From a virus (taxonomy: Duplodnaviria > Heunggongvirae > Uroviricota > Caudoviricetes), in IMG/VR virus record IMGVR_UViG_2879742664_000010: a DNA stretch of 27,751 nt, one strand, 5' to 3'. A program made the translations under genes and the position numbers. Below are positions 22,481-25,196 of this stretch, in pieces. The stretch's first letter is position 1, and each line of letters opens with the position of its first letter. The notes beneath the pieces were generated by a model. That model ran no database searches, was not told where the DNA came from, and saw nothing but the letters and a program-made list of their open reading frames with translations.

Positions 22481-22790
22481 TTTAATTTATCGCGAGAAAA
22501 ACTATGTCTGTAGTGATATCAGGTGCGCTGACTGATGGCGCAGGTATCCCCATGTCCGGATACCATATTATTCTGAAATCCCGGGTAAACACCCCGGAAG
22601 TGGTGATGCACACTGTTGCTGATGTGATGACAGGAAACGATGGTGAATACTGTTTCCATGCGCGGACTGGAAAATATGGTGTGTATCTGAAACCGGGCTG
22701 GCACAACGAGTACAACGTTGGCGACATTGCTGTATATGAGGACTCAATGAGGTGTACTGGCAATAGCGGACACTACCATTTGTTCTTTTT

Positions 22791-23609
22791 TTAAGCAGCC
22801 ATCTGATGATATTTTTCCCTGAAGGCTGCCGGGGAGATATTCCCCAGACGAGAGTGACGACGCTGACGATTGTAGAAAATCTCAATGTATTCCCGTATTA
22901 CTGAGATGGCTTCATCCCGGTTATTAAAACGATAGTGGCTCAGGCTCTCATTTTTCAGCGTTCCCCAGAAGCTTTCCATCGGAGCGTTGTCGTAACAGTG
23001 ACCTTTACGCGACATTGATGTTTTCAGACCAGACTGCTCCTGTATGACCCGGTAATCGTATGCGCAGTACTGTGAACCTCGATCAGAGTGGTGGATTAGC
23101 CCGGCAGGTGGGCGCTGGCTCCTGAGCGCCATAAACAGGGCTTTACCTGTCAGCTCTTTTGTCATGCGCTCTCCCATGGCGTAGCCGACAATTTCGCACG
23201 TATAAACATCTTTGATGCCAGCGAGGTACAACCATCCCTCCTGTGTGGCAACATACGTCAGGTCCGCCACCCAGACCTGATTTGGTGCTGTAGGAGCGAA
23301 CGTCTGGTTCAGCAGATTTGGCGCAACTGGCAGATTGTGGTTCGGGTTCGTAGTCGCTCTGAACTTGCGTTTCTGCTTACAGCGTAGCCTTAGCTCCTTA
23401 CGAAGACGTGCCAGTCGGTCACGACCAACGATGATGCCATTCTCTGCCAGCTCCGTCTGGAGCCGCCGGGTTCCATATGTTTCGCGAGTGCGGATATGTG
23501 CCACCTTAATCTCCAGTTTTAGCCGCTCATCACTTTGTTTTCTGTCTGAGGGTTCATGCTGTACCCAGTTGTAATAACCGCTCCTGGATACACCAAATAC
23601 CTGACACAT
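22791..23609 (-). CDS. IS3-family transposase OrfB, IS600-like
   Basis: Identical 272-aa ORF. Confidence 0.9.
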   Translation of the reverse strand: MCQVFGVSRSGYYNWVQHEPSDRKQSDERLKLEIKVAHIRTRETYGTRRLQTELAENGIIVGRDRLARLRKELRLRCKQKRKFRATTNPNHNLPVAPNLLNQTFAPTAPNQVWVADLTYVATQEGWLYLAGIKDVYTCEIVGYAMGERMTKELTGKALFMALRSQRPPAGLIHHSDRGSQYCAYDYRVIQEQSGLKTSMSRKGHCYDNAPMESFWGTLKNESLSHYRFNNRDEAISVIREYIEIFYNRQRRHSRLGNISPAAFREKYHQMAA

Positions 23610-23644
23610 CGCTTCAATGGGAAATTGTTGTCGCCATTGTTCGA

Positions 23645-23947
23645 TTAACGCGTATTTTTCAGCGACTCCTGTGCGAAATACGCTGTTGCTTTTTTTAATA
23701 TATCTCGCTCAAGGCGAGCTTCATTTAACGCCTTACGCAGTTGCAGAATTTCAGATTCCAGTTCAGCCACCGTGCGGGAACCAGGAGTACCGAGCCCTTT
23801 TCTGGCGGCGGTAACCCATTGTCCTAAAGTGCCTTCAGGAAGGGATAATCGGGAAGCGCCTTCACTGATCGAAAGTTGATTTTCAAGAACCGTTCTGACA
23901 GCTTCGGCTTTGAACTCTTTAGAGTAACGTTGGTTTTTTCTGCTCAT
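23645..23947 (-). CDS. IS3-family transposase OrfA, IS600-like
   Basis: Identical 100-aa ORF. Confidence 0.9.
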   Translation of the reverse strand: MSRKNQRYSKEFKAEAVRTVLENQLSISEGASRLSLPEGTLGQWVTAARKGLGTPGSRTVAELESEILQLRKALNEARLERDILKKATAYFAQESLKNTR

Positions 23948-25196
23948 TATTAGCTCCTTCTGATGCCATTCTATTTCAGGAAGGAGTGTCCGTTAAACTC
24001 AGGCTACCTCACAAAGCCCGGCACGCTGAATGACTTTCTGATTGCTCCTGATGAGGGCGACCTGAAACCGGATGTCGTCAAACGCTTTGAGGAAATGGTG
24101 GTGCAGGCGCAGCAGAGCGCCGGGGCCGCAGCCGGAAACGCACAGCAGACGGCGCAGGATGTGGCGGCAGCCGCAACGGCCCGTGATGATGCACAACGTT
24201 TTGCGGAGAATGCCAGACAGGATGCAACCGTCACAGCTGAGGACAGAAAGGCCACTGCGGAAGATGTGACAAGCACAGGAGCAAATGCAGCCGCAGCCGG
24301 ACAGAGCGCACAGGATGCCGCAGGTTATGCCCGCGCAGCAGAACAGGCCAAAAATGACATTGATGCTGCGCTGACCGGCACTCTGAAAATGGCTAACCAT
24401 CTGTCAGAAATCGCAGCAGCAGGCGAAAAGGCACAACAGAAGTCCCGGGATAATCTGGGGCTGAAAAGTGCGGCCACGATGGAAGCACAGAGCGATATTT
24501 ACGACCGGACAAAAGGCCGTCTGGCGATACCCGGCGCATTCGGCTTTGGGTGTGCTTTTCTGCCTGAAGATGTTATCCGTTTTGACACTAAGAGTGATTT
24601 CCTGGCCTGGGTAAGGAATGCGCTGCCAGGTGAATATTCCGTTGCTGGCCCCTACGACATCATCATACCCGACACACGGTTTGAAGGGGTGCTCAGCATC
24701 CGGTGGACTGATGCACGCCCTGAGACAACAGAACCGCGGTACAGAGCCAAATCCCTTACTTTTTACGGCATTAACGGCCCCATTTATCACACCCGCTACT
24801 GCTACTGGCCCATATCCAGACTGACTGGCTGGGTGAAAATAAATATAACCACAGAAGATATTATTTACAGAATCGTGGCGAGCTCTGTCCGCAACAGATG
24901 GGGAGACCCTGACATTGGCGGGCTGATTATTGCTGCGTACCAGGGAGAAGCTGACGGTGATAAAGTCATCAGACTTGTCAGGGGGCAGTCATACAGAGGC
25001 TCACGACTGGGACCGGTGGGGATTTCAGTGCCCAGTACTCCCACCGGAACGTATATAGCATCCCCACAATTTTTCATTACGGGATGTTCAGAGCATTCAT
25101 TACCGGGGTCATATTGCGCCCTGTCCGGGGGGCCGGATGCACATGTCTCTGGCGCAATGCCCGGGCTTTTTATTCGCACATCGTGAGGAATGCACC

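Follow-up and report, generated by a model that had tools for sequence, protein, structure and literature searches.

A phage side tail fibre gene interrupted by IS600 next to an ipaH-family gene in a phiP27-like prophage remnant

The collar of Ur-lambda, located where gpV meets gpM, is made up of twelve gpStfN domains (aa 1-94), and the distal part of the lambda fibre has been described as structurally gp37-like (PMC12617516). In Vibrio myophage XM1, it is the neck that is bound by the N-terminal domain of gp40 (PMC10457771). Moreover, DUF4376 chaperones of tail fibres have already been described, the one of phage V22 being essential for active fibres (PMC10579305).

The window, by which we mean the whole stretch of 27,751 nucleotides that was analysed, holds a fibre gene that was named stf2 as the second fibre gene of its module. 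The region 22504..25186 is very probably a pseudogene of a phage side tail fibre, inactivated by one IS600 transposition. In Shigella genomes, it is normal for prophage genes to be inactivated by IS elements. The stf2::IS600 allele is an ordinary inherited pseudogene, already known from many public assemblies. The parts of the interrupted gene are as follows.

22504..22747, plus strand: 5' fragment of stf2, codons 1-81 and the first base of codon 82, with most of the PF08400 collar/attachment domain
22745..22747, no strand: left copy of the target-site duplication CAA, 3 bp
22748..24011, minus strand: IS600 (IS3 family), 1264 bp, its transposase genes antisense to stf2
22791..23609, minus strand: IS600 orfB, 272 aa, integrase core (rve; Pfam PF00665, PF13683, PF13333)
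23645..23947, minus strand: IS600 orfA, 100 aa (Pfam PF01527, HTH_Tnp_1, E 1.3e-20)
24012..24014, no strand: right copy of the target-site duplication CAA, 3 bp
24015..25186, plus strand: 3' fragment of stf2, from the second base of codon 82 onwards, comprising the remainder of the collar domain, the shaft and the tip, and ending in TGA at 25184-25186

An earlier note on this DNA had proposed that excision of the element restores one uninterrupted ORF of about 471 aa, and our analysis bears this out. When IS600 and one CAA were removed in silico, joining 22504..22747 to 24015..25186 gave 1416 nt (471 codons and TGA), in which translation revealed no internal stop and at which the junction reads ...VYEDSKPGTLNDFLIAPDEG..., exactly as in the earlier version. 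By our own arithmetic, 471 random codons would be free of stops with a probability of (61/64)^471, ~1.5e-10; thus, the open stf2 frame is not due to chance. That the site was once empty is independently proven by the enteroinvasive E. coli (EIEC) strain RMDEC465 (L002 5757..7169), where stf2 is uninterrupted, the site holds a single CAA and the junction sequence, CGACATTGCTGTATATGAGGACTCAAAGCCCGGCACGCTG, is identical. The two loci also have the gene order ...tfa-stf2-DUF4376-ipaHd-dinI-yecD-aspS in common. The window copy differs from an intact EIEC allele at 8 of about 1086 nt, and IS600 is its sole lesion.

All the features of IS600 that were inspected are found in the element at 22748..24011, namely the length and the ends (TGAGGT...ACCTCA, imperfect terminal inverted repeats of the TG...CA type), the two ORFs, the 3-bp duplication and near-identity in sequence. 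In fact, nothing notable separates it from the IS600 of Shigella and EIEC in length, ends, orfA and orfB, duplication or sequence. Over its full 1264 bp it is 99.8-99.9% identical to copies that carry the RefSeq annotation "IS3-like element IS600 family transposase", and 1 nt differs (99.92% identity) between it and the three other copies of the window, the four being located at 1035, 3578, 9378 and 22748. At site 23675, the window IS600 carries a G and seven sister assemblies an A. A highly repeated element, present four times in 27.7 kb, could be wrongly placed by an assembler; yet the perfect 3-bp duplication that flanks IS600 and the recurrence of the same junctions in independent assemblies, complete chromosomes included, leave such a misassembly with a negligible probability.

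IS600 entered after nt 244 of stf2, inside codon 82, and duplicated CAA. The 5' ORF continues into the element up to 22794 and encodes a 96-aa N-terminal stub, 15 residues of which are IS-encoded; downstream of IS600, the 3' part of stf2 is left promoterless and, lacking aa 1-81, has lost the greater part of the docking domain. A 407-aa hybrid ORF opens at an accidental ATG (23963) within IS600. Judging from its sequence features, it was set aside as a candidate for an expressed fusion, since no Shine-Dalgarno was seen upstream and most of the docking domain is missing.

The insertion had also been regarded as recent relative to gene decay. This is right in so far as the window copy bears no second lesion, but the insertion is inherited and not young in the sense of a single strain. 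The 96-aa fusion product is specific to the insertion; an exact-protein look-up showed that at least 24 contigs, read from 30 index blocks, encode it, and its source labels are Shigella boydii and "MULTISPECIES Shigella". One carrier (L006, CP026811.1) agrees with the window at every position of 22504-25760 (100% identity), and another IMG/VR prophage contig (L037) carries stf2::IS600 too. A very recent, strain-private insertion would agree with the lack of any other disabling mutation in either half of stf2 and with an IS600 copy that is only 1 nt away from the other three of the window. Such an origin is, however, very improbable and in fact already contradicted: the same left junction lies on all those contigs from many Shigella assemblies, the carriers differ by SNPs, five of them share a derived deletion of 242 bp, and L037 is one more carrier.

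The 242-bp deletion, at about 25039-25280 and common to five insertion-carrying assemblies, is also what we relied on for later decay. Other carriers show candidate frameshifts and SNPs relative to the window; the lesions include a GC insertion at 24163 and a shortening of G6 to G5 at 25127. Yet each indel of L003, like the change in the G6 run at 25127 of L008 and L037, falls in a homopolymer and may be a sequencing error, and the frameshifts of L003 and L008 were therefore dropped as proof of later decay. An exact scan of species-representative genomes for the 32-nt left junction gave no match; these representatives evidently lack the allele, and the scan thus does not address its distribution. 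The course of events was very probably a single insertion in a Shigella lineage including S. boydii, inherited since and followed by later lesions in sister genomes. In part from the source names of the protein, we infer that the host of the window belongs to Shigella as well. For the S. boydii-containing lineage the locus offers a clean, datable marker, with the insertion first and the 242-bp deletion later.

The prophage of the window is a phiP27-like myovirus remnant broken by IS1 (2 copies), IS2, a nested pair of the IS66 family and the four IS600 copies; an IS3-family transposase pair is located at 6468-7558. The prophage domains that were detected include Rha/Ash, a CI-like repressor, an SLT-domain protein that is a probable tape-measure fragment, a Dit-like domain, the gp18 plug and DUF2612. 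The neighbours of stf2 are the following.

20206..20559, plus strand: DUF2612 baseplate-wedge gene, a 3' remnant cut upstream by IS2 (PF11041, profile positions 82-180 of 181)
20546..21931, plus strand: fibre 1, 461 aa, with a C-terminus like P2 gpH and phiP27 L54 (phrog_6859, phrog_454)
21977..22480, plus strand: Caudo_TAP tail-fibre assembly protein serving fibre 1 (PF02413, E 1.3e-25; phrog_136)
25197..25760, plus strand: DUF4376 gene, probable cognate tail-fibre chaperone of stf2 (PF14301, phrog_1141)
25940..27751, minus strand: ipaH-family T3SS effector gene, LRR_TTSS and NEL E3 ligase (Pfam PF14496, PF12468)

IS2 matches at 19800..20240 of the window (query 1-441). The DUF2612 remnant identifies the tail as phiP27-like and contractile. 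The region of fibre 1 has about 80% nucleotide identity to phiP27 L54-L55 and 76.5% to P2 H-G.

In such a setting, the clean stf2 frame may say nothing about when the gene last functioned, if the prophage had died earlier and the ORF is clean only for want of neutral time. To this reading we give slightly less than an even chance. The many IS elements, the truncated SLT-domain (probable tape-measure) fragment and the DUF2612 stub speak for it, and so does the state of the gene's close paralogues on other islands, about half of which are still full length despite their remnant setting. Nevertheless, it is in no real conflict with inactivation by a single IS600 transposition and only limits the meaning of "recent".

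The intact 471-aa protein was most likely a trimeric fibre in three parts. The first (aa 1 to ~91) would be a collar domain of the lambda Stf type (PF08400) docking the fibre on the tail, the second (aa ~95-250) an Ala/Gln-rich helical shaft, and the third (aa ~255-471) an alpha/beta tip of phrog_2636, by its position a putative receptor-binding module. The position of the tip, its family annotation and its chaperone neighbour are what point to receptor binding.

The N-terminus is the best defined of these. PF08400 covers aa 1-131 of the stf2 product (E 3.4e-67, 225 bits vs a cutoff of 26.6), and in a PDB sequence search the lambda Stf collar domain (9e7m) aligned to aa 1-92 (E 3.9e-15) and the XM1 collar spike (7kjk) to aa 1-190 (E 3.3e-8). 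In phage records of the lambda family the alignment is confined to aa 1-110, and no similarity to lambda was detectable by this comparison beyond about aa 110. The label "stf-like" in the earlier note is thus apt for the N-terminus (PF08400, 9e7m), but suits neither the tip nor the presence of DUF4376 instead of a lambda-type Tfa.

The C-terminal domain had been called unfamiliar and possibly a distinct receptor-binding module. A module it appears to be, yet it is not new to databases. The stf2 product matches phrog_2636 (E 4.6e-221) in two stretches, the best of which aligns aa 180-470 to profile positions 270-567 of 568; this is the best-scoring PHROG family and the sole one to span the C-terminal tip (aa 180-470). 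Tail fibre L56 of phiP27 is 46.7% identical to the stf2 product over 100% of the query, and by these matches the product can be assigned to the phrog_2636 (phiP27 L56-like) family. For the tip module, defined as the phrog_2636 stretch in the C-terminal about 217 residues, 247 homologues were retrieved, with an N-terminus of either PF08400 or the P2-type PF12571. The module is also represented in 84 clusters at 50% identity, and most full-length matches carry it at the extreme C-terminal position. No Pfam family matched the C-terminal half of stf2, and NCBIfam gave no match for the fibre, the DUF4376 chaperone, fibre 1 or Tfa. The PDB sequence search returned no significant structural relative of the tip, the only hit being 8omz at E 0.7 (aa 291-347). 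Structure prediction of the tip, proposed earlier as a check, was carried out: over aa 262-471 most 10-residue blocks of the AlphaFold2 model have mean pLDDT values of 70-94, with two blocks at 55-67, in a monomer with only 25 sequences behind it and a mean pLDDT of 72. In the same monomer, those shaft residues that were modelled have a pLDDT <50. The tip family is catalogued yet unstudied.

Directly downstream, with a gap of 10 nt in the window, lies the gene of the DUF4376 protein (PF14301, E 1.6e-16, 61.1 bits vs a cutoff of 25), to which phrog_1141 aligns end to end from 25197. Its likely start is the GTG at 25197, with GAGGA ahead; a longer ORF from the ATG at 25137 has 50 nt in common with stf2. 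In 75 of 80 related loci, the tip module is succeeded by a DUF4376 gene, at a distance of 13-17 nt from the tip match in intact pairs. In addition, the two co-vary: tips of ~51% identity go with DUF4376 proteins of ~70%, and tips of 40-45% with 64-69%. This adjacency and co-variation suggest that the DUF4376 protein probably helps the tip to fold.

The ipaH gene, which lies at the end of the prophage remnant, is convergent with the fibre cassette and syntenic with the annotated ipaHd of RMDEC465. In lambdoid prophages, the same cassette is found behind J-lom, usually with a convergent ipaH gene shortly downstream, and an stf2-type gene lies directly after J-lom in 25 lambdoid loci and in EIEC VL40 and RMDEC465. 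Among the Shigella/EIEC-class loci examined, the fibre-tip/DUF4376 cassette is 88-100% identical immediately upstream of different ipaH paralogues, and each of the four Shigella species has annotated homologues of the tip.

These loci also bear on where the fibre attaches. The stf2 product could be a whisker-like fibre of the neck or collar, as XM1 gp40 is, and not a host-receptor fibre, the baseplate fibre then being fibre 1 with its Tfa. The homology of its PF08400-type N-terminus to the neck-binding domain of XM1 gp40 would fit, and so would the fact that the module already holds a DUF2612-linked baseplate fibre with a Caudo_TAP chaperone of its own. We consider this unlikely, however. In the 25 lambdoid loci the gene directly follows J-lom, the place of stf itself, and no first fibre or Tfa gene was detected there between lom and the stf2-type gene; in Ur-lambda the docking site of this N-terminal domain is close to the tail tip (PMC12617516); and tips of the same family also end P2-type PF12571 fibres. 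Moreover, collar attachment is compatible with receptor binding.

Given a receptor-binding fibre, it is tempting to consider the conservation of the cassette further. On two tail types, chromosomal ipaH genes have the tip/DUF4376 pair as their conserved neighbour to the left. Perhaps the phrog_2636 tip and DUF4376 form a receptor-binding cassette used on lambdoid and contractile tails alike, which marks the phages that spread ipaH; this is a tentative proposal. If it is true, the receptor of the cassette would set which hosts could acquire chromosomal ipaH effectors. The cassette, with a tip that lacks any significant relative among solved structures, is in any case a reasonable target for studying host choice by ipaH-carrying phages.

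Compared with lambda Stf and Tfa, stf2 has a homologous PF08400 N-terminus, an Ala-rich helical shaft and, in many relatives, the same place after J-lom; however, its product is shorter and its tip is that of phrog_2636. A distal part of the lambda Stf type was not seen, the alignment being limited to aa 1-110 and the C-terminus free of Pfam matches. Neither does a Caudo_TAP (Tfa) gene follow stf2, the one of the window lying upstream and DUF4376 downstream, nor does the window copy follow J-lom, its place being in a phiP27-like module, downstream of DUF2612, fibre 1 and tfa. XM1 gp40 has a homologous N-terminal domain that is able to dock trimers on a contractile-tailed virion, but it is 839 aa long and its distal part is unrelated. 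The order of genes is that of the Stx2e phage phiP27, in which a DUF2612 wedge, a fibre, tfa, fibre L56 and L57 lead to attR and the prophage end; the differences are that the L56 gene is intact in the complete phage genome record and that attR, not ipaH, comes next. Finally, in Alteromonas phage V22 (gp26 and gp27, the latter with DUF4376) and phage A5 (gp8/gp9) a fibre gene is likewise directly followed by that of a DUF4376 protein. Their hosts differ from that of the stf2 pair, and the likeness that was seen is one of gene arrangement and DUF4376; the V22/A5 cassette is common to phages of different tail morphology, and V22 needs its chaperone for active fibres (PMC10579305).

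Removal of the fourth IS600 copy of the window restores the second tail-fibre gene, stf2, exactly in frame, and this observation is confirmed. The insert occupies 22748..24011, exactly 1264 bp with the ends TGAGGT and ACCTCA (sequence reading of 22300-25400), and is directly flanked by CAA on both sides (22745-22747 on the left and 24012-24014 on the right). Excision in silico, joining 22504..22747 to 24015..25186, gave 1416 nt, that is 471 codons and a TGA with zero internal stops, where codon 82 (AAG, Lys) is restored from A22747 and AG24015-24016 and the peptide spanning the joint reads ...VYEDSKPGTLNDFLIAPDEG...; every coordinate of the earlier note was thus confirmed. 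By our own arithmetic, (61/64)^471, the chance of such a long stop-free stretch in random sequence is ~1.5e-10. The strongest check on the reconstruction is an empty site, as the gene is uninterrupted in the enteroinvasive E. coli (EIEC) RMDEC465 (contig L002, 5757..7169), with junction nucleotides identical to those of the rebuilt sequence. The naming of the insert as IS600 held as well, since the element is 99.8-99.9% identical to RefSeq copies annotated as "IS3-like element IS600 family transposase" and encodes an orfA with an HTH and an orfB with an rve domain. Perfect 3-bp duplications were also found at two of the three other IS600 copies in the window, which carries four with the stf2 insert. 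In contrast to copies 1, 2 and 4, copy 3 (9378..10641) lacks a 3-bp duplication, being flanked by GAT to the left and TGA to the right, as would be expected had the IS mediated a deletion or had two copies recombined.

The gene had been called stf-like, and this holds for the docking domain but not for the rest. PF08400 ("prophage tail fibre N-terminal") covers aa 1-131 of the rebuilt protein (E 3.4e-67). The protein also aligns with a 94-residue lambda Stf fragment (PDB 9e7m/9mgh, E 3.9e-15) and with the N-terminal part of the collar spike of Vibrio phage XM1 (7kjk, E 3.3e-8). In Ur-lambda, the collar at the gpV/gpM junction is built of twelve such domains (aa 1-94), and flexible linkers suspend each trimeric fibre from three of them (PMC12617516); in XM1, the neck is bound by a gp40 domain homologous to the stf2 N-terminus (PMC10457771). 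The IS600 cut, at codon 82, therefore falls near the end of the docking domain. All alignments to lambda-family phage records are confined to aa 1-110, and judged by these alignments the protein beyond ~aa 110 is not Stf-like.

The C-terminal domain, described previously as unfamiliar, belongs to an already known phage family, yet it has no solved structure and no known receptor. The whole rebuilt protein matches phrog_2636 (E 4.6e-221). Its C-terminal 267 aa retrieved 247 homologues from all four Shigella species, E. coli, E. albertii, Citrobacter, Salmonella and Yersinia, with either PF08400 or a P2-type PF12571 N-terminus, while an exhaustive search of aa 255-471 against 1.84 billion representatives returned only 84 clusters, in which the module lies at the extreme C-terminus of most full-length matches. 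The tip is therefore a mobile module whose family is of modest size. AlphaFold2, run on a 25-sequence alignment (A1), modelled most of aa 262-471 as a mixed alpha/beta domain with pLDDT 70-94, except for two 10-residue blocks at 55-67, and gave no confident structure for the shaft. Foldseek of the tip model against PDB found no match at E up to 0.001, and the BFVD hits were confined to relatives by sequence in phages Av-05 and Goslar; the tip is thus catalogued by sequence, without a significant solved structural relative.

Directly downstream, 10 nt separate the stf2 stop from GTG 25197, which is preceded by GAGGA and opens an ORF of 187 aa (25197..25760) carrying PF14301 (DUF4376) and matching phrog_1141 end to end. 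RefSeq places the start in relatives at ATG 25137, which gives a longer ORF with a 50-nt overlap with stf2. We favour GTG 25197 because of the GAGGA Shine-Dalgarno and the PHROG profile running end to end from it, and the annotated ATG is probably wrong. Among 80 related prophage loci from IMG/VR, the DUF4376 gene comes next after the tip module in 75, and starts 13-17 nt past the tip match where the pair is intact. Moreover, the two co-vary in the IMG/VR loci, tips of ~51% identity being accompanied by DUF4376 proteins of ~70% and tips of 40-45% by those of 64-69%. DUF4376 proteins are documented tail-fibre chaperones, that of Alteromonas phage V22 being essential for active fibres (PMC10579305), and in Campylobacter phages putative DUF4376 chaperones come after receptor-binding proteins (PMC10877375). 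We infer that the cognate chaperone of stf2 is the product of 25197..25760.

Three contexts were seen for the stf2-DUF4376 cassette: immediately behind J-lom in 25 loci and in EIEC VL40, behind J-lom-stf1-tfa in RMDEC465 and 2 loci and, as in the window, behind DUF2612-fibre1-tfa in 9 loci. The VL40 allele is ~99-100% identical to the window from ~nt 330 onward and only ~55% before, so that docking domain and remaining fibre meet at a classic mosaic joint. In the close (>=88%) Shigella/EIEC class, most loci reaching far enough have a convergent ipaH paralogue ~185 nt downstream (61-100% identical). In VL40 (contig L001, 5689..11328), the cassette ends a lambdoid prophage and adjoins the sitABCD iron/manganese transporter operon, not ipaH, so that the position after the cassette seems to be a general cargo slot.

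The insertion had been considered recent relative to gene decay. This stands relative to further decay, as IS600 is the sole lesion in the window copy, but not in absolute terms, since the junction is on at least 24 contigs (30 index blocks), which hold the exact sequence of a junction-specific 96-aa product reading from stf2 into IS600, under the names Shigella boydii and "MULTISPECIES Shigella". One protein cluster contains both the Sb227 3' fragment and that of the window, and CP026811.1 is 100% identical over 22504-25760. Five carriers of the insertion (L004, L005, L007, L009 and L010) have in common a 242-bp deletion (~25039-25280), with short TCCC microhomology at its breakpoints, by which stf2 loses its 3' end and the DUF4376 gene its 5' end; L004 has an additional GC insertion at 24163. 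In L008 and L037, a G6-to-G5 change at 25127 fuses the two ORFs, and the indels of L003, all in homopolymers, are probably sequencing errors. The window copy differs from the intact VL40 allele at 8 of ~1086 nt (4 synonymous, 4 nonsynonymous). IS600 is therefore the first lesion and, in the window copy, the only one; the insertion is inherited across a lineage.

Of ~60 close paralogues that lie in other islands, 24 remain full length at 421-471 aa and, with one exception, terminate in GLFIRTS; the remainder are broken by other lesions. In eleven (L059-L069, other Shigella/EIEC prophage contigs), a 4-nt slippage deletion of one CTGG unit from a tandem repeat (24826..24833 in the window, CTGGCTGG) shifts the frame to a terminus ...WPISRLTG*; at this place, the RMDEC465 allele diverges locally and its frame is restored. 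Three N-terminally truncated copies (L036, L047 and L079) have IS600 sequence directly upstream, which suggests separate insertions.

The window itself is a heavily IS-ridden prophage remnant, with these features:

1..754 and 7552..8305: two IS1 copies, 99.7% identical, IS1-type DDE transposase
6468..7558: a further IS3-family transposase pair
14055..19074: nested pair of an IS66-family element, 2506 bp per copy, tnpA, tnpB and tnpC, ends GTAAGCGT...ACGCTTAC
19031..~20240: IS2, abutting the truncated DUF2612 gene
25940..27751, minus strand: ipaH-family gene, 603 aa, LRR_TTSS and NEL
Phage genes: Rha/Ash, CI-like repressor, SLT-domain protein (probable tape-measure fragment), Dit-like protein, gp18-type plug, DUF2612 wedge stub

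IS DNA takes a large share of the 27.7 kb (two IS1, IS2, the IS3-family pair, four IS600 and the nested IS66 pair). One copy of the IS66-family element (14937..17442, 8-bp duplication AAAACGGC on its flanks) sits inside another, identical one, hence the odd gene order A-B-A-B-C-C. The window edge coincides exactly with the ipaH-family ATG, which places the promoter region outside; this gene matches ipaHd-annotated RMDEC465 DNA in its 3' portion only, up to 26719, and its 5' LRR part is different.

Altogether, the earlier interpretation is partly supported. The stf2 locus, which public genomes already contain and annotate piecewise, is an ordinary pseudogene, created by an IS in the remnant of a Shigella prophage. 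One lead is worth keeping, namely a conserved tip and DUF4376 cassette that neighbours ipaH genes and occurs on phage tails of two kinds. From the DUF2612 wedge stub, cut by IS2, the order runs through fibre 1 (461 aa), the Caudo_TAP Tfa, stf2::IS600, the DUF4376 gene and the convergent ipaH gene. The Stx2e phage phiP27 shares this order (DUF2612 wedge L53, fibre L54, tfa L55, fibre L56, L57 and attR); the remnant thus belongs to the phiP27-like, contractile-tailed type and is not lambdoid. The phiP27 tail fibre L56 is 46.7% identical to the rebuilt stf2 protein over its full length.
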